The position numbers were made by a program, and so were the translations under genes. DNA of 64,000 nt from Candidatus Moranbacteria bacterium GW2011_GWE2_35_2-. GTDB lineage: Bacteria > Patescibacteriota > Minisyncoccia > Moranbacterales > UBA9337. Shown in pieces: positions 4,268-58,642 of this stretch. Location of the stretch: the NCBI GenBank assembly GCA_000990585.1, contig LBQD01000002.1, forward strand, positions 184,016-248,015. Direction: 5' to 3'. How positions within the stretch are numbered: the first letter of the stretch is position 1; the number at the start of each line of letters is the position of its first letter. The notes below the pieces were generated by a model. That model had not been told where the DNA came from and made no database searches. It was given only the letters and a program-made list of their open reading frames with translations.

Positions 4268-6214
4268 ATGATACAATCTAATTGTTATATAGTTATTCGA
4301 ATAAAATTTTTTATGTCTCTTGATAACTTAAACAAAAAAATAAATAATCCCAATGAGTTGATTGATAATAGTGAAATTTACGGGGAAAAAAAATTACCAG
4401 TAGAGAACAAATTTATTATTGGTGATGGAAAAAAATGGAAGCGAACTAACGGTTGGCTGGATGAAGGAACATTGAAAATTATTAAAATTGCGATGATGGT
4501 TCTTGCCGGATTTTTTGTACTGGCGGCGATCGTTTATGGTGTTTTTCGGTACAGTCAAACTTCTTTTAGCGAGGAACGAGTGCTTGTTGAAATTGAGGGA
4601 CCGGCGGATATTAACAGTAGTGAAGTTGTAAAGTATAAAATAAAATATAAAAACAACAACCGAGCTGAACTTGAAAATGCGGAATTTGTGATTAGCTATC
4701 CTGAGAATTTCAATCCGGAAGGAAATTCTAATTTTCAAATTCAAGGGGAAAATAATAGTGTGGTTAAGGTGGGAAAAATAAAGTCTCGTGGTGAAGGTTA
4801 CGTGGAGATTAGTGGGCGTTTTTATGCGCCGATAAATTATACATTAATAATGAAAGCTTCATTGAAATACATGCCTTCAAATTTTAGCAGTCAATTTCAA
4901 TCTAGCACGCAAAAAGGTCTTAGCGTAAAAACTTCTCCGTTGGTAATTTCCATCAATGCTCCGATGGAGATTCTCAGTGAAAGTAAAATTAGTTATGTAA
5001 TCGGATACCAAAACACAAGTTCTATTTCTTTTGATGATTTGAAACTTGAAGTTGATTTTCCGAAAGGGTTTGAAATTCAAAATTCGGAAGTTTCTATTTT
5101 TAAAGAAAACAGCATTTGGAATGTTGGAAGGTTGGAGGCGGGGCAAAAAGGAGAAATCAAAATCGAGGGGATTATTCAAGGCGTAAGAGGTGATGTCAAA
5201 TCCATAAATGTCGCTATTGGACAGTTTAGGCAAGATAAGGAGTTGCTGGTGTTTGATAAAAGAGAAGCAATTTCTAAAATAGTGGTACTTCCTTTGTCCA
5301 TTTCACAAACAATAAATGAGCAAAAATCGCTTAATATCAATTCTGGGGAGAATTTGAATTATCGTTTGCATTATCGAAATGATGGAGATGTCGGATTGCG
5401 GGATTTGATTATAACGATGAAGATAGATTCTCCGGTTTTGGATTTTTCCAAGTTGAATTTGAGTGGCGGAGGTTCGTATGATTCGGAAAAAAAAGAAATT
5501 GCATGGAAAGCTTCTGATGTTTCTCAACTTGCCAAGCTTGATCCGGGTCAAGGAGGATCAGTAAGTTTTTCCATTCCAGTAAAAGACAAGATTGAAGTGA
5601 ACAGTAAGGAAGACAAAAATTTTTCAATTGAATCAATTGCTAAGATTGATAGTCCGGATGTGGCATATCCAGCGATAGGAGTAAATGAGAGTGCGAGCAG
5701 AGCGCTTGTAAAGGTCAATTCGAAAGTTATTTTAGAAACCGTCGGATATTATAAGGATGCGAATATTGCAACGTCCGGACCGATTCCTCCGGAAGTAGGC
5801 AAGGAAACGGAATATATTATTCATTGGTTAGTTACTAATATTTCCAATGATATTGATAATGTCTCGGTTTCCGCTTTTCTTCCGACGGGAGTGAAATGGA
5901 AAAACGAAATTTATTCAAAAACCGAGGATGTGAAATATAATGAAAGAACCAATGAGATTATTTGGAATCCGGGAAAAATTGAAAACGGAACCGGAATTTT
6001 GGGCAAAGTAAGAGATGTGAGTTTCAAAGTTTCGATAGTTCCACAAATAAATCAAGAAGGGAAAGCGGTTGTTCTTTTGGGAAAAACGACACTTAGGGCG
6101 AAAGACTTGTTTACTGGAAATGAAGTGTTAAAAGAAATTGCAGAAAAAAATACAGAACTTCGGGAAGATAGTAGTATTACATCTGCTGGTTATCAAGTGA
6201 AAAAAGGAGAGTAG
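4268..6214 (+). CDS. large N-terminally membrane-anchored surface protein, hypothetical (start uncertain; track start 4238 is TTG)
   Basis: single TM helix near residue 90 followed by ~550 aa beta-rich repeat-like domain; no catalytic motifs seen. Confidence 0.5.
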   Translation: MIQSNCYIVIRIKFFMSLDNLNKKINNPNELIDNSEIYGEKKLPVENKFIIGDGKKWKRTNGWLDEGTLKIIKIAMMVLAGFFVLAAIVYGVFRYSQTSFSEERVLVEIEGPADINSSEVVKYKIKYKNNNRAELENAEFVISYPENFNPEGNSNFQIQGENNSVVKVGKIKSRGEGYVEISGRFYAPINYTLIMKASLKYMPSNFSSQFQSSTQKGLSVKTSPLVISINAPMEILSESKISYVIGYQNTSSISFDDLKLEVDFPKGFEIQNSEVSIFKENSIWNVGRLEAGQKGEIKIEGIIQGVRGDVKSINVAIGQFRQDKELLVFDKREAISKIVVLPLSISQTINEQKSLNINSGENLNYRLHYRNDGDVGLRDLIITMKIDSPVLDFSKLNLSGGGSYDSEKKEIAWKASDVSQLAKLDPGQGGSVSFSIPVKDKIEVNSKEDKNFSIESIAKIDSPDVAYPAIGVNESASRALVKVNSKVILETVGYYKDANIATSGPIPPEVGKETEYIIHWLVTNISNDIDNVSVSAFLPTGVKWKNEIYSKTEDVKYNERTNEIIWNPGKIENGTGILGKVRDVSFKVSIVPQINQEGKAVVLLGKTTLRAKDLFTGNEVLKEIAEKNTELREDSSITSAGYQVKKGE

Positions 6215-6233
6215 TATCGTTTTATTTCAAAAT

Positions 6234-7397
6234 ATGGAAATTTTTTCCGAAAAAAGAGTAAGAGTGAAAAAAATAAAAACGAAAAGCGGAGAATTGCAAA
6301 CTCCGTTTTTTATGCCTGACGCTACACGAGGATTTATCAAATCTATGAGCGGAAAAGATTTGAAAGATGCAGGGGTTGGTCCGATGGTAGTCAATACATA
6401 TCATTTGTATTTGCAACCCGGTATGGAATTGATTAAGAAATCCGTCAGTCCTTGTCAAAATTTTGACGGACAAGGAAATATTCATAAATTTATGAATTGG
6501 GACAAGCCCTTGCTTTCCGATAGTGGAGGATATCAAGTTTTTTCTTTGATACACAAGAATCCGCAAATGGGAAAAATTACCGATGATGGCGTGGAATTTC
6601 GTTCGCCTTTGGATGGTTCAAAACACTATATTACTCCGGAAAAAGCGATTCAAATTCAGTTTGATTTGGGAGTGGATATGATGGTGTGCCTGGATGATCC
6701 GCCTCCAAACAGTCATACGAAAGAAAAAATTGAAGCGGCCGTTGATCGGACTTTGGCTTGGGCGAAAAGGTGTATGATAGAGTATAAAAAACAAATTAAA
6801 GAAAGGAAAATTGAAAAAGAAAATAAACCTTTGATTTTTTGCGTTATTCAAGGCGGTGAATATTTGGATTTGAGGAAAAAATGCGTTGAGGGATTGATTG
6901 AAATCGGGTTTTCCAAAGAAGGCGGACCGGCTATGCGATGGGATGGATATGGATTTGGTGCGCGGCATGTTGACAGCGAGGGCAATTTTTTGGAGAAAGT
7001 TTTGGAATATACTGCCAAGTTGATTCCGGAAGATTCTTTGCGTTTTGCTTTGGGAATCGGAACACCGGAGGATATTGTCCGTTCGGTGCAAATGGGATGG
7101 GATATGTTTGATTGCGTAATTCCGACGCGAGAGGCAAGACATGGAAAAATATTTTTATGGAAAGACGATAATTTGGAAGGGGAGTTTTATAAAACTGTGA
7201 ATATTACTAATTCGAAATTTAAGGATGATTTTAGCGCGATAGATGAAAATTGTGATTGTGAACTTTGTCTAAATTATTCACGGGCATATTTGCATCATAT
7301 TTTCAAAATGAAAGATCCTTTGGCGGCACGTATTGCTTCGATTCACAATTTGAAATTCTATACGAATTTGATGAAAAAAATCCGCGGGGAGATGTAG
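6234..7397 (+). CDS. tgt: queuine tRNA-ribosyltransferase
   Basis: GGYQVFSL, DCVIPTR, CDCELC...H zinc site and YLHHIFKMKD motif. Confidence 0.9.
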   Translation: MEIFSEKRVRVKKIKTKSGELQTPFFMPDATRGFIKSMSGKDLKDAGVGPMVVNTYHLYLQPGMELIKKSVSPCQNFDGQGNIHKFMNWDKPLLSDSGGYQVFSLIHKNPQMGKITDDGVEFRSPLDGSKHYITPEKAIQIQFDLGVDMMVCLDDPPPNSHTKEKIEAAVDRTLAWAKRCMIEYKKQIKERKIEKENKPLIFCVIQGGEYLDLRKKCVEGLIEIGFSKEGGPAMRWDGYGFGARHVDSEGNFLEKVLEYTAKLIPEDSLRFALGIGTPEDIVRSVQMGWDMFDCVIPTREARHGKIFLWKDDNLEGEFYKTVNITNSKFKDDFSAIDENCDCELCLNYSRAYLHHIFKMKDPLAARIASIHNLKFYTNLMKKIRGEM

Positions 7398-15279: not shown

Positions 15280-15364
15280 GGAGAGGTGGCCGAGCGGTTT
15301 AAGGCGCACGCTTGGAAAGCGTGTTGAGGGAAACTTCACGCAGGTTCAAATCCTGTCTTCTCCG
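15280..15364 (+). tRNA. tRNA-Ser (anticodon GGA)
   Basis: acceptor GGAGAGG/CTTCTCC, anticodon stem CACGC/GCGTG with loop TTGGAAA, long variable arm, T-arm GGTTCAAATCC. Confidence 0.85.
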
Positions 15365-15365
15365 C

Positions 15366-17159
15366 ATGAATTCCAATACTGAAGAAATTAAGGCGAGGGT
15401 AAATATTGTCGATTTTATCGGTGGATATGTTCGCTTGCAAAAAGCCGGCTCAAGTTGGAAAGCTTGTTGCCCTTTTCATAATGAAAAAACACCTTCGTTT
15501 GTCGTTAATGAGGAAAAACAATTTTGGCATTGTTTCGGTTGTGGAAAAAGCGGAGACATCTTCACTTTTTTGATGGAAATGGAAGGAATCGATTTTCGTG
15601 AAGCACTTAAGGTTTTGGCCGATAGGGCGGGAGTGGAGCTTCCGGAATATAATCCGCAAAAAGAAAAAGAAAAAAATCGAGGTGCGGATATTTTGGAACT
15701 TTCCGCAAAATTTTATGAAAAACAACTTTGGGAAGGAATGGGAAAAGTAAAAACATTTGAATATTTGAGGCAAAGAGGATTGAAAGATGAAATAATTAAA
15801 GAATTTCGTTTGGGATATGCTCCTGACGGATGGCGGAATTTGCTGGATTTTTTGCTTAGTCGGGGCTATAGAATGGAAGAAATTTCCAAAACCGGAGTAG
15901 TAGTTATTAAACAAGATAATTCGCAGCGTTTTTATGACCGCTTTAGAAACAGGATTATTTTTCCCATTGCCGACGCAATGGGAAAAATTGTTGGTTTTAC
16001 GGCGAGAGTGGCTCCAGGAGACGATGAATCGCAGGCAAAATATGTAAATACTCCAGAATCGGAGTTTTATCACAAAAGTCGGATTTTATATGGAATTGAT
16101 AAAGCTAAGGGAGAAATAAAAAGCAAAGATCGAGCGATTTTAGTAGAGGGGAATATGGATGTTATTGCTTCGTATCAAGCCGGAATAAAAAATACGATTG
16201 CAGTTTCCGGTACGGCGCTCACGCAGCAACAAATAGATATCATTAAGCGTTACACGAAAAACTTATACTTGTTTTTTGATGCTGATACGGCTGGTCGGCA
16301 GGCGGCGGTGCGAAGTTGTGAGATGGCTTTTGCAAATGATTTGAATGTTTTTATTATCGAACCTTCCGAAGGAAAGGACGCAGCTGACATTGCGCAGAAA
16401 AACCCCGCTGATTTGTTGAAATTGACAGAAGAAGCTGTTGAGGCGATGGAATATTTTTTGCAAAAATTTTTCAAAAAATATAATCCGGAAAACATTATTG
16501 AAAAGAAGAAAATTGTTCAGGATTTTGTTGCGCTGATAATTAATTTTCCCAAAGAAATCGATCGTCAACATTGGGGAAAAAAATTGGCCGAGCGGCTGGG
16601 TATTAATGAAAAAGTTATTTATGAAGAAATATCTTTAGCGAGTAACAGAGCGAATGTATATCCAAAAACAAAATTACGACAAGAAGCGGGTGTTTTTTCC
16701 AAAACAGAAAAAAGAAGTACTGTTATCGGAGAAAAAATATTTTCCTTATTTTTTGGAAATGAGGATGTTTGGAGAATGGCGGAAGAGAAACGTGGAAAGG
16801 AAATAGCGGAATATTTTGCGGATAATGTTTTTTTTGCAAATATTTTATCGCTGGGCAGAGAAAATGATTTTAAATTTGATAAATTTGAATTATTGATTGA
16901 TGATGAAAAAGAGCGGAAATTTTTAAGGAAAATGAAATTTTCAAGCGCTGAAGAGAATATTAATAAAGGCAATGACGTGCTATTTGACGAGGAATGGAAA
17001 TATTTCGAACAATTGATGGAGGAATTGAAAAAAGAAAAAAAGAAGGAATATGTCGATTTTTTGGTCAAAGAGATTGCGTTGGCTGAAAAAGATGGGGATA
17101 AAGAGAGAGTAAAAAAAATAGCGCAGAAATTGTCAGAGTTGTCTCGGGAAGATAAATAA
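15366..17159 (+). CDS. dnaG: DNA primase DnaG
   Basis: CPFHNEKTPSF...WHCFGCGKSGD CHC2 zinc finger and Toprim region; ATG at 15366 abuts tRNA-Ser 3' end (track start 15312 lies inside the tRNA). Confidence 0.9.
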   Translation: MNSNTEEIKARVNIVDFIGGYVRLQKAGSSWKACCPFHNEKTPSFVVNEEKQFWHCFGCGKSGDIFTFLMEMEGIDFREALKVLADRAGVELPEYNPQKEKEKNRGADILELSAKFYEKQLWEGMGKVKTFEYLRQRGLKDEIIKEFRLGYAPDGWRNLLDFLLSRGYRMEEISKTGVVVIKQDNSQRFYDRFRNRIIFPIADAMGKIVGFTARVAPGDDESQAKYVNTPESEFYHKSRILYGIDKAKGEIKSKDRAILVEGNMDVIASYQAGIKNTIAVSGTALTQQQIDIIKRYTKNLYLFFDADTAGRQAAVRSCEMAFANDLNVFIIEPSEGKDAADIAQKNPADLLKLTEEAVEAMEYFLQKFFKKYNPENIIEKKKIVQDFVALIINFPKEIDRQHWGKKLAERLGINEKVIYEEISLASNRANVYPKTKLRQEAGVFSKTEKRSTVIGEKIFSLFFGNEDVWRMAEEKRGKEIAEYFADNVFFANILSLGRENDFKFDKFELLIDDEKERKFLRKMKFSSAEENINKGNDVLFDEEWKYFEQLMEELKKEKKKEYVDFLVKEIALAEKDGDKERVKKIAQKLSELSREDK

Positions 17160-17239: not shown

Positions 17240-18589
17240 ATGAGCAAGACAACTAAGAAAAAAAGTAAAATAAAGAAGACTAAAAAAACAATGCCTAAAA
17301 AGTTGACAAGCAAAGTTGCAAAGAAGCAAAAGGCAAGGGTTGGGCAAAAAAAGCGCAATGTTAAGAAAATAAAGAAAATTGCAAATAAAAAGAAGTCTAC
17401 TGCAAAAAAGATGGTAAGGAAAACCGGCGGTTTGTTGCGTGCGAAAAAAACAACCGGTAAATCGGCAAAATTAAAACAGTCGCAATCAAAAAAAGAAAAT
17501 TTATTGGAAGAACTTGTATCTCGAGGGAAAATTAGAGGGTTTATAACCGAGGATGAAATTATTCATATAATTCCGGAAATAGAAAAAGATTTGGATGATC
17601 TGGAGAATTTATACGAAAAATTGGAAACCAACGGAATTAGAGTGGTGGGATCGGGCGAAATGATAAAGATGGAAGTGGACGCGACAGCAGAAAACTTCGA
17701 GAAAGAAAAAAATAGAAAAGAAAAAGAAAGACAGACGATAATTAACGAGGGAGAAGCTAATTCTTCCGATTCAGTACAAATGTATTTGAAAGAAATTGGA
17801 AGAGTTCCATTGCTTAAGACTGAGGATGAAATTCGTTTGGCGAAATTGAACGAAAAAGGTGATTTGGCCGCTAAAAAACAGCTTACAGAAGCTAATTTGC
17901 GGTTGGTGGTAAGTATTGCTAAAAAATATGTAGGGCGTTCGCATAATTTGGGCCTCTTGGATTTGATTCAGGAAGGAAATATTGGATTGTTTCGGGCGGT
18001 CGAAAAATTCGATTATCGTAAGGGGTATAAATTTTCCACTTATGCGACTTGGTGGATTCGTCAGGCGATTACGCGTGCGCTGGCCGATCAATCCAGAACA
18101 ATTCGTATTCCGGTGCATATGGTGGAGACTATCAATAAATATATTCAAATAACGCGCCGCCTTGTTCAGGAATTGGGACGCGAACCTTTGGCGGAAGAAA
18201 TTGCAGCAGAAATGGATATGGAAGTGGATAAAATCAGGCATATACAAAAAATTTCGCAAGAAACCGTTTCCTTGGAAACCTCAGTTGGAGATAGTGATGA
18301 TGAAAGTGTATTAGGTGATTTTATCGAGGATACAGAAACAATTATGCCTAATCAGGCGGCTTCAAGAAAATTACTTACCGGTCATGTTGTTGAAGTTCTT
18401 AGTGAGCTTACTCCGCGTGAGCAAAAAATTCTCAAAATTCGTTTTGGATTGGAAGATGGAGTGACTCATACATTGGAAGAAGTCGGGCAGGAATTCGGAG
18501 TAACGCGAGAACGTATTCGTCAAATCGAAGCCAAGGCTTTGGAGAAAATTCGTGATCATTCCGGAGTAGGTAAGTTGAGAGATTATTAG
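17240..18589 (+). CDS. rpoD: RNA polymerase sigma-70 factor RpoD with lysine-rich N-terminal extension
   Basis: [40 protein letters not shown] region 2, region 4 HTH at C-terminus. Confidence 0.9.
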
Positions 18590-29269: not shown

Positions 29270-29530
29270 TTATTTTATCCAGTCCCAATACTCTTTGTTA
29301 AGCCATCCATCCTTGTTTGTCGTAACCTGAATAACCAATAGGCTATCATTTTGGTCGATTTCGCTCCTTAATATAGCGGATATTTCAGACGTAGACTTAG
29401 TTGTTTTAAACAACCAAACAGATTCGAGTGGTTTGATATAATCTGTAGAAATTCGGTTTTTCAAAGATTCATACAACTTTGCATAATTTTTTCCGGGTGC
29501 CTTGAGATCATAACTTACTAGTACAATCAT
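29270..29530 (-). CDS. Cas2/VapD-fold small protein (orphan, putative nuclease/toxin)
   Basis: 86 aa; MIVLVSYDL...YAKLYESL...ESVWLF...DSLLVIQV matches Cas2/VapD beta-alpha pattern; no cas1 or CRISPR array in window. Confidence 0.4.
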   Translation of the reverse strand: MIVLVSYDLKAPGKNYAKLYESLKNRISTDYIKPLESVWLFKTTKSTSEISAILRSEIDQNDSLLVIQVTTNKDGWLNKEYWDWIK

Positions 29531-29700
29531 AATACTTACTATTAAATTGTCTTTTTGTGTTTCTTTTGCTAAAATGAATTAAGGAAAACATTTGTGAGAT
29601 GTAAAATAAAATACGAGTCGACCAATCTTTTACTTCAAAATATCCTCACAATATTTCAAAGTAAAAGCACTCTTATGTTTTACTAGCATTTGGAAACACG

Positions 29701-29727
29701 AAAAAGCTACCTCAAAGTAGCTTTTTT
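29701..29727. terminator. hairpin terminator at 3' end of ImmA gene
   Basis: AAAAAGCTAC-ctcaaa-GTAGCTTTTTT, 7-bp perfect stem with flanking A/T runs. Confidence 0.55.
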
Positions 29728-30383
29728 CTATTTCCAATAAAACCTAGATCTTCCAATCTAATTTGAAAAGCTTTTTTTGAGATACCGAATCGTTCTTTTA
29801 TTTTCGGATACACAAAATCAAGGTTTAATACTGATTTCAATCCTCCATTTTCAACCAATCCAAGTTGGGAAAAATAATTTACTAAATCAAATTTAGGTAC
29901 AAGCAAAGTGGAAGCGTATTTGTTTGCTTGCCATTCAAGTCTTTTTTCTCGTCCATCGGAAACAACTTTATTACTTTGAGATGGCAAAGGTTTTCCCTGC
30001 CAACCAACAACTTCACCATTTTCAAGACGCATCATTGAAAGGTGCAAAGAGAGGTGCCCCGCTTCGTGTGCCACGGTAAAATTTATTCTTTCAGGCGAAC
30101 AATTTGGATTAACATATATGATTTTGTTTTCAGGATCCAGATATCCCCAAATTTCATCATCTGATGTATCGGGCACAATTTCGTGAAAGACAATTTGAAA
30201 GCCCCACATTATTTCAATATAATTATCAATATCAAGTTTTTCAGAAGGAGCTTTATTAAATTTTTTTTGATAAATTTCTTTATATTTCCTAATATCCTGC
30301 ATAACCTGAAATTCAATCTCATCTTTCGTGAGTCGATATGTATCCACAAAGGGTATCCAATTTTTATGCAGTTTAATCTTCAT
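29712..30383 (-). CDS. ImmA/IrrE family metallopeptidase (COG2856)
   Basis: VAHEAGHLSLH HExxH motif in 223 aa protein; start overlaps XRE gene end by 11 bp. Confidence 0.75.
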   Translation of the reverse strand: MKIKLHKNWIPFVDTYRLTKDEIEFQVMQDIRKYKEIYQKKFNKAPSEKLDIDNYIEIMWGFQIVFHEIVPDTSDDEIWGYLDPENKIIYVNPNCSPERINFTVAHEAGHLSLHLSMMRLENGEVVGWQGKPLPSQSNKVVSDGREKRLEWQANKYASTLLVPKFDLVNYFSQLGLVENGGLKSVLNLDFVYPKIKERFGISKKAFQIRLEDLGFIGNRKKLL

Positions 30384-30708
30384 TTCCGCTAATTTTATTA
30401 TTTTTTATTTTTCGAAAAAGCTCCCCCATCATTTTTTCTTTATCTTTCATTTCTGGCCATTCTTTTTTTATTTCGACCGCAAGATAGCTAGTTATCAAGT
30501 CTTCAAACTCTTCTTCAGTTAAACCATACTTGGCTTTTATCTCATAAAGAAATTTTTTTGAAGGCGTTGCGAGTCCTGCTTCTATCTTACTTAAATAAGT
30601 AAAAAAATTACTATTTGGTTTGATTTTATCGCCTACAGTTCGCAAGCTTTCGCCAGGGAAGTACTTTTCCCTCAGACTCTTTAATTTGTCGCTAAAATTT
30701 ACCTCCAT
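30373..30708 (-). CDS. XRE-family helix-turn-helix transcriptional regulator
   Basis: SLREKYFPGESLRTVGDKI...YLSKIEAGLATPS HTH_3 pattern; ATG at 30708 (track start further upstream). Confidence 0.65.
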   Translation of the reverse strand: MEVNFSDKLKSLREKYFPGESLRTVGDKIKPNSNFFTYLSKIEAGLATPSKKFLYEIKAKYGLTEEEFEDLITSYLAVEIKKEWPEMKDKEKMMGELFRKIKNNKISGNED

Positions 30709-30743
30709 AGAGATTAGATTAAAAATTGTTATCCCTGTTGAAT

Positions 30744-30772
30744 ATAATATCAACAGTTGAAAAATTTGTCAA
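30744..30772 (-). promoter_or_regulatory. putative promoter and operator of XRE-ImmA operon
   Basis: minus strand TTGACA -17- TATTAT; spacer/-10 contains palindrome TTCAACTGTTGA and half-site TCAACAGG (autoregulation-type operator). Confidence 0.45.
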
Positions 30773-30805: not shown

Positions 30806-31276
30806 TTAGCCATTTTTCATTGAGTCAGTTATTTTTTTGAGCCCTATGGCTTTATTTTTCTTTATTCCGTGTTCCCAAATTCTGATTACTTTCCAGCCAT
30901 TTCTCCTTAAGTATGCCGTTGTTTTACGGTCTCTTGTTCGATTATTATTTATTTTATCCCGCCAAAAATCATTTTTCAAAGTATTTTTCCACCTTGGAAA
31001 TTGCCAACCGTGCCAGAAATCACTATCAATAAACACGCAAATTTTTTTAGATTTAAAAACGATGTCAGGATTACCCTTGATGCTTCTTTGATGCGTCAAG
31101 AATCGGTATTTTGTTTCTTTTTTTAATAATTTTATAAACTCAATTTCAAGCTTAGTTTCTTTGGAGCGTATTTTCGACATTAACGCCGATCGCTTCTCTT
31201 CAGAAAGTTTATCCTTCAAATTTTTTCGCTGGAAATTTCTTCCAAGATAATTTCTTATTTTACGCTTTTTTACCAT
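30806..31276 (-). CDS. vsr: very short patch repair endonuclease Vsr
   Basis: TKLEIEF...GNPDIVFKSKKICVFIDSDFWHG Vsr catalytic core. Confidence 0.8.
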   Translation of the reverse strand: MVKKRKIRNYLGRNFQRKNLKDKLSEEKRSALMSKIRSKETKLEIEFIKLLKKETKYRFLTHQRSIKGNPDIVFKSKKICVFIDSDFWHGWQFPRWKNTLKNDFWRDKINNNRTRDRKTTAYLRRNGWKVIRIWEHGIKKNKAIGLKKITDSMKNG

Positions 31277-32303
31277 ATTTTAAGCCTGCTTCAAATATTT
31301 CAACCGCATCTTTTCCAGCTGTTTTTCGTAACATACCTTTCCAATGAGCTAGCTTATCGCTTGGAATTTTGGATATTCTCCAATAGTAAGAAATCCTTTC
31401 TTCATCTATTTCGTTTATGACGGATGCGATATTCGATGCGTTTGAATAAAGGTTAAAATAAATTTTAGGAACCAGTTTTTCTTTTCCTTTCAATTGAATA
31501 TTTTGTTGTCCTCCAGCCGTGAATTTATCTCGTAAGCTAGATGAAACAGTGTTATAAGCGGTTATCAAGTACGCAGCCACTCGCTCGAATTTTGTTTGAG
31601 TTCGTCCAAAAATTTCGGGAAATAATATCATTGATTCGATAAAAAATTTCTCTCGCTCCTTTCTTTCTAAAGTATCGTAGGACTTAATGATAGGTGCGAC
31701 GGTTCCTTCCTCGGACATTTGGTCAATCCACCATAATTCTTCACCGTCTTTCAATTGACTCCTGTAGTAATCCTTAACTTTAGCTATTAGGTTCGATTGT
31801 GAGCGAAACAACTCATAATCAATTTTCATTTTATCGAAAATAGATTTACCAATCTCTAACTCCATATTTATTTTGTACCTAGGCGAATGAGTCACGCCAA
31901 TATCGTAAAGGCACTCTTCATAAAGGCGAAACCTTATGTCCGTATCGCCGCCGAGCTTTCCAAAGAAAAGAAAGATTCTTTTTACGTCATCTATTCTTGT
32001 TGTTTCAAGGACGCTATTTCCAGTCGAAACCCATTTATTTCCAGTTGTGACTTTGACTTCCACTCCAAAATATTTTTTTGCGATAATATCGGGAAAAGCG
32101 TGCGCGCCCGTTTGTTTTACTGTATTTTCAAATTCAGTCCCAACTGACGATTCTTTCATTTTTTCAAAAACAAAAGTTTCAAACTCATCACCGCTCATAC
32201 CGCTATTTCTGCCTGAAAGAATATTTAATGAGTTTTCTCTTGTTTTTTCCAAAAGGGCAACAAAGTTTTCCTCCTGTATCCCGTTTTTATTGATATAAAT
32301 CAT
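31260..32303 (-). CDS. type II restriction endonuclease (PD-(D/E)xK) partner of Dcm
   Basis: FPDIIAKKYFGVEVKV = PD...EVK motif; gene between C5-MTase and vsr, overlapping both by a few codons. Confidence 0.5.
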   Translation of the reverse strand: MIYINKNGIQEENFVALLEKTRENSLNILSGRNSGMSGDEFETFVFEKMKESSVGTEFENTVKQTGAHAFPDIIAKKYFGVEVKVTTGNKWVSTGNSVLETTRIDDVKRIFLFFGKLGGDTDIRFRLYEECLYDIGVTHSPRYKINMELEIGKSIFDKMKIDYELFRSQSNLIAKVKDYYRSQLKDGEELWWIDQMSEEGTVAPIIKSYDTLERKEREKFFIESMILFPEIFGRTQTKFERVAAYLITAYNTVSSSLRDKFTAGGQQNIQLKGKEKLVPKIYFNLYSNASNIASVINEIDEERISYYWRISKIPSDKLAHWKGMLRKTAGKDAVEIFEAGLKYGKKA

Positions 32304-32310
32304 TGCTTTA

Positions 32311-33345
32311 TTACTTTAAATTTTTATCAAGAAATTTTTGAATCGCAGTCGCTATATGCCAAGCCATAACTGGGGGAACCGCATTGCCGACTTGCTTATA
32401 TGCGGAAGATGTTGAAGGGAAGAAAATGAAGTCGTCCGGAAATGATTGGATTCTGGCTGCTTCTCTAGCCGACAACCTTCTTTTCCCATTGTAATGATAT
32501 TCAATATTTCCGTGATGCTCAGTCCGCATTGTTGGTCCTGGTTTCAATGCGGATACAATATTGTTACCTTGCCCATTATTTTTTTTCGCCTTTGACCAAA
32601 AGTGGTTATCAAATCCCCCTTCTTCTAATTTCTCTAAATCACCAATAGCTTTTTTCAAAGGAATCCAATTTTCTTTACTAAATAATTCTTTCGGATAGTC
32701 TTCATTTTCAAATTTAGGAAGTTTTCCTTTTATTGTTCCAACAATTATGACACGCTCCCTAGTTTGCGGAACACCATAATTTGCAGCGTGCAATAATTTG
32801 AAGTTAACGTTATATCCCAATGTCGCAAAGTCTTTTACGATTGTATCAATAGCTTCTCCCTTGTTCATTGTGAGAAGTCCTTTGACGTTTTCAGCGACAA
32901 ATAAAACAGGCTTTGTGCGCTTGATTACTTCCATCATACTTTGATAAAGAATACCTCTTTTGCTTTCAAAGCCCTTTCTTTTTCCAGCGTGACTGAAATC
33001 CTGACAAGGAAATCCTCCTAAAACTATATCTACCTTTTGCGGCAGTTGTTTATCAAAAAGTTTTTTTGTTCCCTTTTCACTAAGAATATCTCGAATGTCA
33101 CCACAAACAATATCGTGTCCAAAATATTTTCTGTAAGTTTCACAGCTAGGAGAATCTATATCATTCGACCATTCCATTTCAAAATTCCTTTTTGCGTACT
33201 TCTTTCCTAAATAATCAAATCCGCCTCTAAAACCAAGATCGAGCCCTCCACACCCCGCAAACAATGAAGCTATTTTATATTTCTTCTTTTGTTCCTTTTT
33301 TGTATTCACAGTTTTGCTTATCGCCATATTATTGATTATTTTCAT
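32311..33345 (-). CDS. dcm: DNA (cytosine-5)-methyltransferase
   Basis: motif I LFAGCGGLDLGF, motif IV GGFPCQDFS, motif VI ENVKGL, C-terminal TRD. Confidence 0.9.
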   Translation of the reverse strand: MKIINNMAISKTVNTKKEQKKKYKIASLFAGCGGLDLGFRGGFDYLGKKYAKRNFEMEWSNDIDSPSCETYRKYFGHDIVCGDIRDILSEKGTKKLFDKQLPQKVDIVLGGFPCQDFSHAGKRKGFESKRGILYQSMMEVIKRTKPVLFVAENVKGLLTMNKGEAIDTIVKDFATLGYNVNFKLLHAANYGVPQTRERVIIVGTIKGKLPKFENEDYPKELFSKENWIPLKKAIGDLEKLEEGGFDNHFWSKAKKNNGQGNNIVSALKPGPTMRTEHHGNIEYHYNGKRRLSAREAARIQSFPDDFIFFPSTSSAYKQVGNAVPPVMAWHIATAIQKFLDKNLK

Positions 33346-33550
33346 TATGTTTTAAGAATTTTGCTATTTCTTTTTTGGAATACCTCATTAATTTTTTCTC
33401 CCCAATTCTTATAGCAACCAATATTCCTTTTGTGTCCCATTGTCTCAAGGTGTTTGGATGACATTTTAATAAACCGCAAGCCTCCTTTAGTGTGAGCAAC
33501 TCCGGGATGTCTTTATCGTTTTTTTGATCTTTGGTCATTGATTTTTTCAT
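33329..33550 (-). CDS. small HTH DNA-binding protein (MerR/excisionase-type HTH_17), possible controller of the R-M operon
   Basis: LLTLKEACGLLKCHPNTLRQWDTKGIL..IRIG; ATG at 33550 preceded by promoter; overlaps dcm start by 17 bp. Confidence 0.5.
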   Translation of the reverse strand: MKKSMTKDQKNDKDIPELLTLKEACGLLKCHPNTLRQWDTKGILVAIRIGEKKLMRYSKKEIAKFLKHNENNQ

Positions 33551-33563
33551 AACATTTGATAAC

Positions 33564-33593
33564 ATTATAATACATAAATGACCTTGGCTGCAA
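33564..33593 (-). promoter_or_regulatory. putative promoter of HTH-dcm-REase-vsr operon
   Basis: minus strand TTGCAG -18- TATAAT immediately upstream of ATG 33550. Confidence 0.4.
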
Positions 33594-33611
33594 ATGAGCG
33601 TTTTAAGGCAA

Positions 33612-33638
33612 TTGGGGTCAGGTACCTTTTTTGTTTTA
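33612..33638. repeat. ~30-nt upstream motif copy 2 (TTGGGGTCAGGTACCTTTTTTGTTTTA)
   Basis: see 27078..27108. Confidence 0.5.
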
Positions 33639-33688
33639 GTGCACAGCAAGGACGAGCCTAGACTAATCTTACAAACGAACTCCGCAAA

Positions 33689-56221: not shown

Positions 56222-58642
56222 TTATTTTAAATATTTCTTTAACTCATCAAAACCATAACTATTTTCTACAATATTTTTTATATACTCCAAATCTAACTCC
56301 TTGTCGTTTTTAAAAGGCATTGGAATATTCATTTTTTTAAGTTTTGTTAAATTTAATTTTCTGTAATAATTATATCTCCATTGATGATTTTTTATCATTA
56401 CTGAAATATAAAATAATAAATATGGATTATATTCATTTTTTAATGTTAGAACTGCATTATCTCCGCTAGTTATAAAATCATCAAATTGAAAAAATGTTTC
56501 TCCAACACTTCCGTTTAATGCCACAGTTAGACATTTGCCTTTAAAATTTGGATCTTCATCGTAATAACCGGATACTCCATTATTTAGCGATGAAGTAGTA
56601 ACATATGGAATATTACCTATTTCTAAAGAATTTTGAGGCAAGGCTGTTTTTTTGTTTATAATACATAAACCATTTTCTTGCTCTTCTTTTATATAAATTA
56701 CTGGTATAAATTTTATTTTAGGCTGTTTCCCTATATGTTTACTTCTCCATTTTTTAGTTTTTATTAAATATGTTAATGATTCTTTTATAGCATTGTCTAA
56801 TTGTTCTTCGACTTCTTTAATATCAGGTATTTTATTATCTATATAAACCTCGGGGGTAAGTTCTATGTTTACATCATTATTATCAAGCTTACAAATTTTC
56901 TTAAATTCTGGAGCGTCTTCAAATTTTAGATTTTGATTAACTAAAAATGCTTTCAATTCTTCTTTTATTTCTTTTATTTGATTTCTTTCTCTTTCTTCAT
57001 CAAAAATTCTTTTTCCTTTCTTTTTTCTATATCCGTCCGTAACACCTCTTGCAAAATATACATTTTGACTATTAAAATTATGAGGAACACCCTTTTTTAT
57101 AAATACTCCTATTGTTCCAACACTAACAGGATAAAATAGATCTTCTGGCAAAGTAACAACCGATAATAAAGTATTATTTTCTAGTAAATCTTTTCTCCAA
57201 GATTTTCCACCTCCACCTTCAACCATTACAGAGATTGGAACAATGGCAAAAAGAATACCACCGTCTTGCATTTGAGATAATGCATGATCTATAAAATGTC
57301 TTTCTTTTTCATCTCCTTTTTTAAGAGCAAAAGGAGGGTTCATTAATACTTTAGTGATAACTGGATTTTTAGTTAATTCATTACCTATTCTTTTTACAAA
57401 TTCACCTGTTTGATTTCCTTTTTTATTAGTTAATTCTATATTTTTTTGAAAACAATTTCCCTCACTCATATTATTTCTTCCATCTCCCCTAAAAATCATA
57501 TTTACAAGTGCAAGTGCTACGACTTCATCGTCCTGTTCAATTCCAAAAAGATTATAATTTTTAAATTTTTCTATTTGTTTATCGCTTGAATTTTTTTTGA
57601 TATGATCAAAAGAAGAAACTAAAAAACCACCTGTACCACAAGTCGGATCAAGAACATAATCATTGTGATTTACATCTAAAACTTCAACTGCAAATTCTGT
57701 TATATGTCTAGGAGTTAAAACGATACCTATCTCTTTTGCACCATTTCCATATTTCAAAAATTTTTCATAAAATTCTCCTAAAATATCTTTACCAGAAGCC
57801 ATTGCATTCTTAATATCTAAAGCCTCTAATTCTTTAATTGTTTCCTTGATTGCGTCCCTATATTTTATGTGATTCTCTCTGCTTGGTGGTAATTCTAATT
57901 TTAGAAAATTAAAAAAACTTTCTTTTTCTACTTCTCTTAGTTTTTTATTGATTAATGAATTAACACTTTCAACTAATGTTGTTGTATCATTTTCTTTTAG
58001 ATTGATAAAAGAATTATCTGCCAAAGAAAGTACAAGTCCTGCAATGAATCTAGCTCTTTTATTTTTATTTATCCCTGCATTATGTAAAATTTCATTTATT
58101 TCTAATGCTGAATCTATATATTTTTCTTCTGGCAAATCTGGAAACTCCGACCATTCTGGCTTATCGTGTTCTAAAATATATTGAGCTTGTTTTTTTGAAA
58201 GTAAGATATTTTTTATCTTTCCTTTTTCCAAAAGCACATTTTCCCATTTCCCATTTTTTAAATATTGATTTTTGACTATATAACCATCTGTATCATTTCC
58301 AGCTACTCCAGAAATTAAAACACATTTAATTTTTTTACTTTTGTTAATCTTTTTCGCATATTGATTTTTTGCCTCATCAAGAGCTTGTTCTATCATATCT
58401 CTATCTCTCTTGCTTTCAATTGCCCAAAATTCTTCACTATTAAGTTTTACCACAGCTTCTGGCATATCTCTATCCAGAAGATTTTTTAGTTCTTTATGGT
58501 ACAAAACTTCATTTTGCTTATAAACTTCACCATCAGAAACCCTAGCAGGATTTTTTACAATCCAACCTAATTTATCAAGCTCTTCCTTGATATAAGTATA
58601 AGCATCAACCTCACTATTTTTTGGTTTAGATGAATGAGTCAT
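56222..58642 (-). CDS. Type IIG-like restriction-modification fusion protein (N6-adenine MTase + TRD, putative N-terminal nuclease)
   Basis: MTase motif I DPTCGTGGFL, motif IV NPPF, HsdM-like GEFYEKFL...TPRHI; C-terminal HsdS-type TRD; N-terminal PE...IESK possible PD-ExK; very AT-rich codon usage. Confidence 0.55.
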   Translation of the reverse strand: MTHSSKPKNSEVDAYTYIKEELDKLGWIVKNPARVSDGEVYKQNEVLYHKELKNLLDRDMPEAVVKLNSEEFWAIESKRDRDMIEQALDEAKNQYAKKINKSKKIKCVLISGVAGNDTDGYIVKNQYLKNGKWENVLLEKGKIKNILLSKKQAQYILEHDKPEWSEFPDLPEEKYIDSALEINEILHNAGINKNKRARFIAGLVLSLADNSFINLKENDTTTLVESVNSLINKKLREVEKESFFNFLKLELPPSRENHIKYRDAIKETIKELEALDIKNAMASGKDILGEFYEKFLKYGNGAKEIGIVLTPRHITEFAVEVLDVNHNDYVLDPTCGTGGFLVSSFDHIKKNSSDKQIEKFKNYNLFGIEQDDEVVALALVNMIFRGDGRNNMSEGNCFQKNIELTNKKGNQTGEFVKRIGNELTKNPVITKVLMNPPFALKKGDEKERHFIDHALSQMQDGGILFAIVPISVMVEGGGGKSWRKDLLENNTLLSVVTLPEDLFYPVSVGTIGVFIKKGVPHNFNSQNVYFARGVTDGYRKKKGKRIFDEERERNQIKEIKEELKAFLVNQNLKFEDAPEFKKICKLDNNDVNIELTPEVYIDNKIPDIKEVEEQLDNAIKESLTYLIKTKKWRSKHIGKQPKIKFIPVIYIKEEQENGLCIINKKTALPQNSLEIGNIPYVTTSSLNNGVSGYYDEDPNFKGKCLTVALNGSVGETFFQFDDFITSGDNAVLTLKNEYNPYLLFYISVMIKNHQWRYNYYRKLNLTKLKKMNIPMPFKNDKELDLEYIKNIVENSYGFDELKKYLK

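Follow-up and report, generated by a model that had tools for sequence, protein, structure and literature searches.

We analysed a three-gene unit on the minus strand of a 64,000-nt stretch of DNA (the window) from Candidatus Moranbacteria bacterium GW2011_GWE2_35_2, a bacterium of the candidate phyla radiation (CPR). The unit encodes an XRE-family helix-turn-helix (HTH) repressor, an ImmA/IrrE-type M78 zinc metallopeptidase and a stand-alone 86-aa protein, for which structure prediction and sequence point to the Cas2/VapD superfamily. We propose that the three genes form a mobile conflict module, in which XRE and ImmA would be a signal-responsive switch and the 86-aa protein the single nuclease-type effector or toxin, a proposal that we regard as plausible, with the weight roughly even for and against. 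The evidence consists of gene order, the conservation of the promoter and its repeats, the predicted fold and conserved residues of the small protein, the swapping of cargo behind homologous XRE-ImmA pairs, and the phage, plasmid and defence settings of the family. A first-pass annotation of this DNA had suggested a damage- or phage-triggered toxin or defence module; synteny, the lack of CRISPR, and homologous pairs that carry cargo resembling a cyclic-oligonucleotide-based anti-phage signalling system (CBASS) support that suggestion at the sequence level, and none of the refutation tests proposed with it went against it.

A portable XRE-ImmA cassette with exchangeable cargo

Homologues of the window ImmA were found with identities ranging from 77-78% down to 40%, and six cassettes were compared (the window, L003, L087, L088, L090 and L091; a further locus, L089, shares the cargo type of L088). 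In every homologous locus the XRE gene lies immediately upstream of ImmA on the same strand, and the cargo that follows is of four kinds (Table 1). Because homologous pairs of 40-61% identity, together with the spacer behind ImmA, carry different cargo at the same position, this XRE-ImmA clade is a portable cassette with a downstream slot for interchangeable cargo, a CBASS-like system included. CBASS-like and other cargo at one and the same position is as expected of a portable defence regulator. The two closest relatives found, L003 and L087, preserve the order XRE, ImmA, spacer and small gene within different flanks.

A conserved, highly basic peptide of 40-41 aa (KIGRSSKNGRF..V..A....TVVETIKKK, no Pfam match) is the first cargo open reading frame (ORF) in three cassettes (L088 1703-1828, L090 2004-2129, L091 2570-2692) and is absent from the window cassette. 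A second, related copy of 57 aa is present in L088. A precomputed label 'PycTM' on the L088 cargo was not reproduced by the Pfam scan, and this cargo is listed here as a membrane protein only.

The spacer between ImmA and the 86-aa ORF measures 181 nt, close to the gap of about 180 bp noted at first pass together with a terminator hairpin. All six cassettes have this terminator, and the L003 copy is identical to that of the window. The order that follows is the same in the six loci: terminator, second hairpin, GTCGA.T box and TAGCA box. The second hairpin keeps its place and its pairing while its sequence differs (7 of 8 pairs are compensatory), and its predicted energy is weak. GTCGA.T and TAGCA are invariant in the six cassettes with their four kinds of cargo, at an inter-box spacing of 32-47 nt, and the TAGCA box stands 30-40 nt ahead of the first cargo start codon.

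No ORF of at least 40 aa was listed in the spacer or directly downstream of the 86-aa gene. An Rfam search of the spacer gave no family at the gathering score, only a sub-threshold small-RNA match over the ImmA terminator. The leader (29563-29667, with equivalents in L003, L087, L088, L090 and L091) is explained by neither a sigma-70 promoter nor an Rfam family. Because terminator, hairpin and boxes accompany XRE-ImmA whatever the cargo, the spacer belongs to the cassette, and it may drive the cargo by read-through, by processing or from a second promoter.

A conserved promoter with co-varying repeats

The first-pass annotation had placed a sigma-70-type promoter in front of the XRE gene. This site ranked best in a scan of the region, and its -35 element (TGTTGACA) and extended -10 element (GTTGATA..AT) are invariant across the six cassettes. 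Two repeat boxes accompany it, one between the -35 and -10 elements and the other just past the -10, and these co-vary between loci: the window pair TTCAAC/TTCAACAG is replaced by TTCTAC/TTCTACAG in L087, L088 and L090, and by less exact, A-rich boxes related to the window repeats in L003 and L091. Because both boxes change together between loci, there is good evidence that they mark a predicted autoregulatory operator.

A palindromic operator had been suggested for the same region. The exact palindrome TCAACTGTTGA (30750-30760) does lie within the direct-repeat region and occurs once in the window, but it is not conserved among the homologous cassettes, does not recur ahead of the small gene, and has near-matches in the window at chance level (21 found, 20.8 expected). 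It arises where the first box abuts the invariant GTTGA of the extended -10 element; the conserved feature is the pair of co-varying direct repeats. The XRE promoter of L003 is preceded by the same hairpin as that at the 5' edge of the window cassette, and that of L091 by a similar one, despite different upstream genes.

The XRE repressor and the ImmA peptidase

The assignment of the first two genes at first pass was borne out by profile searches. The XRE protein matches Pfam HTH_3 below the cut-off (E = 0.011), and a profile of six XRE orthologues finds XRE-family regulators of solved structure (E = 3e-5) and, at E = 0.03, DdrO, the substrate of IrrE. The peptidase matches PF06114 (E = 7e-12, 45.6 bits, cut-off 22) and the PADLOC capP profile (E = 4e-17), the latter at positions 22-151 of 242 only, and ends 12 residues beyond that match. 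It contains the motif HEAGH (residues 106-110), and E150 in EWQANKY (an E..AN motif) is the probable third zinc ligand. No Cys, and so no cysteine-switch residue, occurs between HEAGH and E150. The window peptidase is therefore judged closer to ImmA than to the three-domain CapP/IrrE, because it matches the peptidase part of the capP profile alone and lacks the cysteine-switch residue.

The 86-aa protein and its predicted fold

An identical 86-aa sequence is on record as a hypothetical protein of this genome. It scored 20.9 bits against PF09827 (cut-off 23.8) and 16.1 bits against TIGR01573 (cut-off 24.5), and all its Cas2 matches in Pfam, NCBIfam and PADLOC are sub-threshold. The Pfam Cas2 match recurs at E ≤ 0.01 in 33 of 121 relatives (best 4e-6). 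In the alignment of these 121 members, Y7, D8, L9, Y16, S37, W39, D62 and G75 are each at least 90% conserved. The family, of about 90 aa, has its own motif set (SYDL..PG.DY...LESTWL...D.ND...GWL..W.W), including a C-terminal GWL..W.W helix.

A first AlphaFold model from three sequences was mediocre (mean predicted local distance difference test score 75.7) and was replaced by one from the 121 sequences. The predicted structure has a ferredoxin-like β-α-β-β-α-β core, in which the conserved Asp ends strand 1 and the Ser lies in the turn between strands 2 and 3. Foldseek, run with the earlier model, listed Cas2 chains almost exclusively, and no solved VapD chain was among the structural matches listed. 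Comparison of the family profile with all Protein Data Bank (PDB) sequences gave nothing significant (best Cas2 at E = 0.6), and sequence alone therefore does not place the family.

We place the family in the Cas2/VapD superfamily because the predicted fold, the recurrent Cas2 profile signal and the positions of the Asp and Ser combine. In VapD the catalytic pair is D11/S46, and D11...SST has been proposed for BPSL1038 (PMC11980593, PMC10491678). Asp8 and Ser37 of the 86-aa protein occupy these Cas2/VapD catalytic positions. The Cas2/VapD pattern read at first pass is thus real as regards the predicted core and the two residues, while the scores stay below the Cas2 thresholds. Given its sub-threshold scores, the lack of a CRISPR array in the window and in 86 related loci, of a Cas family among those that PADLOC listed for the window ORFs, and of a recurrent Cas1-like neighbour, we take the protein not to be a canonical Cas2.

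Size and genomic settings of the family

A word-index homologue search with the small protein gave just 3 proteins, and an exhaustive profile search gave 3,585 cluster representatives at E ≤ 1e-3 (849 at E ≤ 1e-10), of which nearly all those listed have 86-100 aa. A locus scan of one genome per species with a 22-sequence alignment yielded 164 confirmed loci, and 80 were fetched (L003-L082). They span Patescibacteria, Bacteroidota, Proteobacteria, Firmicutes, Actinobacteria, Planctomycetes and one archaeon (Methanothrix). Almost all relatives are named 'hypothetical protein' in the databases, and no Pfam, NCBIfam or PADLOC model covers the family. Neither a CRISPR array nor a cas gene was detected in 86 related loci, and no Cas1-like or Cas1-sized neighbour of the small gene recurs.

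Tight partners were counted from crude gene calls in 82 loci (the 80 fetched plus L001 and L002). No partner on the same strand was seen in 36 loci, an upstream partner in 27 and a downstream partner in 22. A single-pass membrane protein of 236-296 aa, whose gene has an ATGA overlap with the small gene, occurs in 10 loci, and a two-pass membrane protein of 115-140 aa in three; neither has a Pfam or PADLOC match. The membrane partner is directly upstream in L001, L005, L013, L017, L027, L028, L031, L039 and L040, and further such loci are L010 (with a 215-nt gap), L032, L035 and L042. The pairing with membrane proteins recalls the membrane toxin GhoT with its Cas2-like partner GhoS.

In 11 Bacteroidales loci (L007, L008, L009, L011, L018, L019, L023, L026, L029, L037 and L052) the small gene, at about 6001-6270 in most of them and at about 2313-2558 in L023, is directly followed by genes for an NsnB-like AAA_15/DUF3696 ATPase (PADLOC, 4e-87) and an NsnC-like protein (1e-47). 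These operons stand at differing housekeeping sites, the genes upstream are housekeeping genes, and the ParB-DUF262 protein NsnA is absent. We read them as a Menshen-like variant outside the published Menshen census, with the small protein in the place of NsnA.

The small gene also adjoins the portal gene in P2-like prophages of Escherichia coli, Citrobacter, Kluyvera and Klebsiella (L075 5746-6264, L082, L083 5296-5565, L093 3495-3764). A Cys-rich ORF of 81-90 aa is a further partner in these enterobacterial prophages, and DUF1883 is another partner of the family. Our own ORF calls put the start of the Cys-rich ORF 3 nt ahead of the small gene in L075 and L082; RefSeq does not annotate it in the near-identical E. 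coli locus L083. The E. coli hotspot also houses the PADLOC candidate PDC-S42 beside the small gene, which is present in just 8 of 5,426 complete E. coli genomes (90-95% DNA identity).

By tblastn the family was found in 64 phage records and 87 plasmids. It lies antisense inside an early or replication operon in Staphylococcus aureus phi13 (L085 4001-4246), Clostridium perfringens CP51 (L086 4001-4276) and Bacillus thuringiensis phi4B1 (L094 3501-3740), and in CP51 and phi4B1 it is on the same strand as a repressor-metalloprotease-integrase block. Some records leave the phage gene unannotated, and others give it the wrong label 'rep'. Small plasmids are represented by pSZECL_e (4,863 bp, ColRNAI/ColE1 type; L084 2135-2422). 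ColE1-type plasmids with the gene occur in Klebsiella, Enterobacter, Citrobacter and E. coli, where its neighbours encode an HTH protein and a 432-aa ATP-binding protein. Because the replicon is so small, its presence hints at a role in addiction or exclusion. Prophage hotspots, passenger positions in phages and small plasmids are the usual homes of defence, exclusion and addiction genes.

Independent XRE-ImmA pairs beside family members

In 10 of the 80 fetched loci an M78 peptidase gene lies at most 2.2 kb upstream of the small gene, and none lies elsewhere in these loci of about 12 kb. Five of them (L022, L025, L054, L059 and L061) belong to unrelated lineages with other XRE-ImmA pairs, and the pair is divergent from the small gene, 47-157 nt away. 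That of L022 matches PADLOC capP (5e-25) and capH (7e-10). The hhalign program found no match between the window-type XRE profile and the L022 XRE, so the two XRE groups are not close. The small gene lacks an operon partner in L022, L025 and L054, where the role of effector would have to fall to it. The synteny of regulator pair and small gene thus recurs both within the window-type cassette and outside it, and these two independent lines of evidence support a link between pair and small gene.

In L033 and L060 the region about 100-1,200 nt ahead of the small gene encodes, divergently, a 191-aa protein resembling an extracytoplasmic function (ECF) sigma factor and an M78 peptidase of 271-273 aa; a 155-aa ORF separates the two in L033. 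This arrangement suggests a different protease-linked regulator beside the same small gene.

Proposed mechanism and alternative explanations

In the mechanism that we infer for the module, XRE would bind the co-varying repeats flanking the -10 element of its own promoter and keep the unit nearly silent. A stress or infection signal would activate ImmA, which would cleave XRE, as proposed by analogy with ImmR/ImmA, DdrO/IrrE and CapH/CapP. The signal may be DNA damage or single-stranded DNA, as in the studied relatives ImmA, IrrE and CapP. Transcription would then rise, and expression of the small gene would follow, either because transcripts read through the two hairpins or because the conserved element of the spacer drives it. 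The small protein would act as a dimeric nuclease-type toxin through Asp8 and Ser37, and the damage to nucleic acid would stop the growth of the infected or stressed cell.

Several observations weigh against this proposal. The strong terminator, identical in L003, splits ImmA from the small gene, and the XRE repeats were not found in the spacer upstream of it; direct control of the cargo by XRE therefore remains inferred. The palindrome suggested as an operator is not a conserved element, and the regulator pair is on the same strand as its cargo, unlike CapH/CapP. As for the effector, its similarity to Cas2 falls below the curated thresholds, and a match of predicted folds alone cannot separate Cas2 from other ferredoxin-like proteins. 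The 36 of 82 loci that have no tight partner also show no visible antitoxin, which is awkward for a constitutive toxin. In the Menshen-like operons NsnC supplies the predicted effector, and the small protein there may be a sensor or adaptor (PMC12065111).

A broader reading, which we advance tentatively as possible though short of probable, takes the whole family as an unrecognised and very widespread branch of Cas2/VapD proteins. Its members would be self-sufficient anti-phage or addiction effectors, or nucleic-acid sensors, plugged into several chassis: XRE-ImmA pairs, NsnB/NsnC operons in which they replace NsnA, membrane partners, P2 hotspots and antisense positions in phages.

The strongest competing explanation, although we find it rather doubtful, is that the small protein binds nucleic acid without catalysis, as a sensor, adaptor or regulator, or is a GhoS-like RNase antitoxin, in either case with variable partners; the window protein would then partner an unlinked protein or a phage component. 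A binding role has a parallel in Cas2 itself, which is a scaffold in the Cas1-Cas2 integrase. The tight pairing with very different neighbours fits such a role: the 11 loci in which the small gene sits where the predicted sensor NsnA would be, the 13 with upstream single- or double-pass membrane proteins, and those with the Cys-rich 81-aa ORF or DUF1883. VapW is moreover a Cas2/VapD fold turned antitoxin (PMC11980593). Unlike in the inactivated VapW, however, Asp8 and Ser37 are more than 90% conserved, 36 of the 82 loci have no tight partner, and, where it is linked to XRE-ImmA, the gene is the sole occupant of a slot filled elsewhere by complete effector systems.

The adjacency might instead reflect the mere clustering of defence islands or mobile elements, with XRE-ImmA regulating itself or something else and the small gene having its own promoter. 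The conserved terminator after ImmA and the spacer free of XRE repeats would suit this explanation, as would the 70 of 80 loci that have no ImmA nearby and the general clustering of defence genes, seen here in the adjacent restriction-modification (R-M) and Vsr operon. We judge it improbable: the spacer hairpin and the GTCGA and TAGCA boxes travel with XRE-ImmA irrespective of cargo, L003 and L087 retain the trio between different flanks, and independent divergent pairs abut family members in five other lineages, with no M78 gene elsewhere in the loci.

It is very unlikely that XRE-ImmA is the ImmR/ImmA-type immunity switch of a degraded prophage or integrative element, with the small gene as a passenger. 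In CP51 and phi4B1 the family member does lie 1.3-2 kb from the repressor-metalloprotease-integrase block on the same strand, and the window contains an excisionase-like HTH_17 ORF (33329-33649), yet a search of the large ORFs at 18.6-38.6 kb of the window turned up no integrase, phage or conjugation gene, and the homologous cassettes hold CBASS-like or other cargo directly downstream, not excision or lytic genes. An ordinary Cas2 whose cas1 and array lie outside the window can be set aside almost entirely: the weak Cas2 profile matches, one database record named 'CRISPR-associated protein Cas2' and one phage record named 'CRISPR-associated endoribonuclease' are outweighed by scores below every curated Cas2 threshold, the lack of arrays in the window and in 86 loci around relatives, the lack of a recurrent Cas1-sized neighbour, the family's own motif set and C-terminal helix, and its occurrence in phages and on 4.9-kb plasmids.

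Window context and feature coordinates

All three ORFs reported at first pass are present on the minus strand, and the XRE and ImmA genes overlap by 11 nt. No tandem or CRISPR-like array was found within the window, and the 55 window ORFs have 25 PADLOC families listed, none of them a Cas family, in agreement with the first-pass claim that array and cas genes are missing. The PADLOC labels 'RT_UG29/RTasDnaG-like' and 'MzaA' (15312-17159 and 17240-18589) most likely mark housekeeping DnaG and RpoD and not defence genes.

The vsr-containing R-M operon described alongside the module was recovered as well. A Vsr gene (PF03852, E = 2e-18), a 347-aa ORF with no Pfam match and a Dcm methylase gene (PF00145, E = 3e-77), with the 347-aa ORF between the other two, form a Dcm-restriction endonuclease-Vsr operon (30806-33649) that directly precedes the cassette. 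The same kind of operon precedes the cassette in L087 (699-3041), and the restriction enzymes differ, that of L087 being of the HpaII type. The HTH_17 ORF of the window overlaps the Dcm start. A second R-M-type gene of the window, at 56222-58642, encodes a type I/IIG-like methyltransferase. Downstream of the 86-aa gene lies a convergent 373-aa gene whose sequence looks like that of a D-Ala-D-Ala ligase. The GC content over the module dips only slightly (0.32 against about 0.36), so there is no clear island boundary.

Table 1. Features of the window cassette and cargo of the homologous cassettes. Positions are those of the window.
Feature	Position	Strand	Basis or description
XRE-family HTH repressor gene, 111 aa	30373-30708	minus	ORF
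ImmA/IrrE-type M78 zinc metallopeptidase gene, 223 aa	29712-30383	minus	ORF and PF06114
Predicted stand-alone Cas2/VapD-superfamily protein, 86 aa, in cargo position	29270-29530	minus	ORF
Predicted sigma-70-type promoter of XRE-ImmA, TTGACA-17-TATTAT with TG extension	30744..30772	minus	11 of 12 consensus positions
Operator-like direct repeats around the -10 element	30735..30761	minus	TTCAAC 30756-30761; TTCAACAG 30735-30742
Hairpin terminator at the cassette 5' edge, overlapping the Vsr stop codon	30792..30817	minus	AAAAATGGCT/AGCCATTTTT; perfect 10-nt inverted repeat
Intrinsic terminator hairpin overlapping the ImmA stop codon	29690..29737	minus	21-nt arms, 86% complementary
Second, AT-rich spacer hairpin	29627..29667	minus	17-nt arms, 88% complementary
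Non-coding boxes before the cargo start codon	29563..29623	minus	GGTCGACT 29616-29623; TTTTAGCAAAAG 29563-29574
Cargo after ImmA, L003			Cas2-like gene, 72% identical to that of the window
Cargo after ImmA, L087			Cas2-like gene, 65% identical; Dcm-restriction endonuclease-Vsr operon upstream
Cargo after ImmA, L088/L089			40-aa basic peptide and membrane proteins, one of them multi-pass
Cargo after ImmA, L090			basic peptide, 182-aa protein, SMODS and AGS_C (46 and 75 bits, both above threshold)
Cargo after ImmA, L091			basic peptide and two unknown proteins of 416 and 455 aa

Significance and comparison with known systems

The family is unnamed despite thousands of diverged representatives in bacteria, an archaeon, phages and plasmids, and literature searches returned no paper on it, on Cas2-like genes in P2 hotspots, or on a connection of Cas2-like genes with CapH/CapP. 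Repressor-protease logic and Cas2/VapD-like toxins are known; the effector family and the same-strand form of the cassette are undescribed in the libraries and literature searched. Were the small protein an effector, the known defence systems would gain a very small one that needs a single gene, and an unannotated gene that recurs in S. aureus and E. coli prophages would have an explanation. The Menshen family would also be extended by an NsnA-less variant, and Cas2 would have an experimentally tractable link to toxin or abortive-infection modules. Under the broader reading, the family would be a present-day instance of the toxin-like ancestors from which Cas2 has been proposed to descend, and a new defence system of one gene that reaches even reduced CPR genomes.

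The 86-aa protein shares with Cas2 the predicted fold, an N-terminal (V/I)xYD(I/L) strand with an Asp in the catalytic position and weak profile similarity. It differs in its sub-threshold scores and its C-terminus, and in a setting (the window and 86 loci) where neither an array nor cas1 was found. With VapD it shares small size, existence outside CRISPR, the Asp ending strand 1 and the Ser in the turn between strands 2 and 3. Some VapD genes likewise stand alone, as for Helicobacter pylori VapD (PMC11980593). In contrast to VapXD, VapYD and VapWD, no VapX-, VapY- or VapW-like partner stands beside the window gene, and the motif set is distinct. BPSL1038 of Burkholderia pseudomallei (PDB 7VXR) is a stand-alone Cas2/VapD-like double-stranded DNA endonuclease of a host without CRISPR (PMC10491678). 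The 86-aa protein resembles it and has a similar Asp...Ser(Thr) arrangement, but neither the D11(X20)SST motif of that sub-family nor a detectable sequence relationship to it.

The 11 Bacteroidales loci resemble Menshen (NsnA-NsnB-NsnC) in that a family member directly precedes the NsnB-like and NsnC-like genes. They differ from it by the lack of the ParB-DUF262 NsnA, a variant not described in PMC12065111, and the window itself has no NsnB or NsnC.

Three-component systems of Xre, a COG2856 protease and a toxin were predicted by Makarova et al. in 2009 (PMC2701414). The window likewise unites in one locus an Xre protein, a Zn protease of COG2856 and a small candidate nuclease toxin, and the patchy, mobile distribution is also similar, with the trio in L003 and L087 between different flanks and the family on phages and plasmids. 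The predicted toxins of those systems are RelE or PIN proteins, often with a fused Xre-COG2856, whereas the window has a Cas2/VapD-like protein and separate regulators.

In ImmR/ImmA (ICEBs1, phage phi105) and DdrO/IrrE (Deinococcus), DNA damage leads a dedicated metalloprotease to inactivate a repressor. The window pair would follow the same repressor-protease logic: its XRE profile weakly matches DdrO (E = 0.03), and the size of the peptidase is nearer to that of ImmA. It differs in having no attached excision genes or DNA-repair regulon, the controlled gene apparently being one small effector. Unlike ImmR/ImmA, it is not linked to integrase, excision or lytic genes, with the HTH_17 ORF the only such candidate among the large ORFs at 18.6-38.6 kb.

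CapH and CapP are an HTH repressor and an M78 peptidase activated by single-stranded DNA, and they control CBASS and other defence operons. The window pair is like them in the adjacency of an XRE-type HTH gene and an M78 gene, kept in all homologous loci, in the capP match of its ImmA (E = 4e-17) and in the SMODS/AGS_C cargo of the homologous locus L090. CapP has a C-terminal GAF domain, a third of them with a cysteine-switch loop, and the window peptidase has neither; the window cargo is a single 86-aa protein. In the published layout the HTH-protease pair is upstream of, and divergent from, the operon that it regulates (preprint 10.1101/2022.04.27.489752). This layout is met in L022, L025, L054, L059 and L061, whereas in the window, L003 and L087-L091 the pair is on the strand of its cargo, in the window with a terminator and a hairpin between them. 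A CapH/CapP-like cassette thus exists in CPR bacteria in a same-strand form with a conserved leader of its own.

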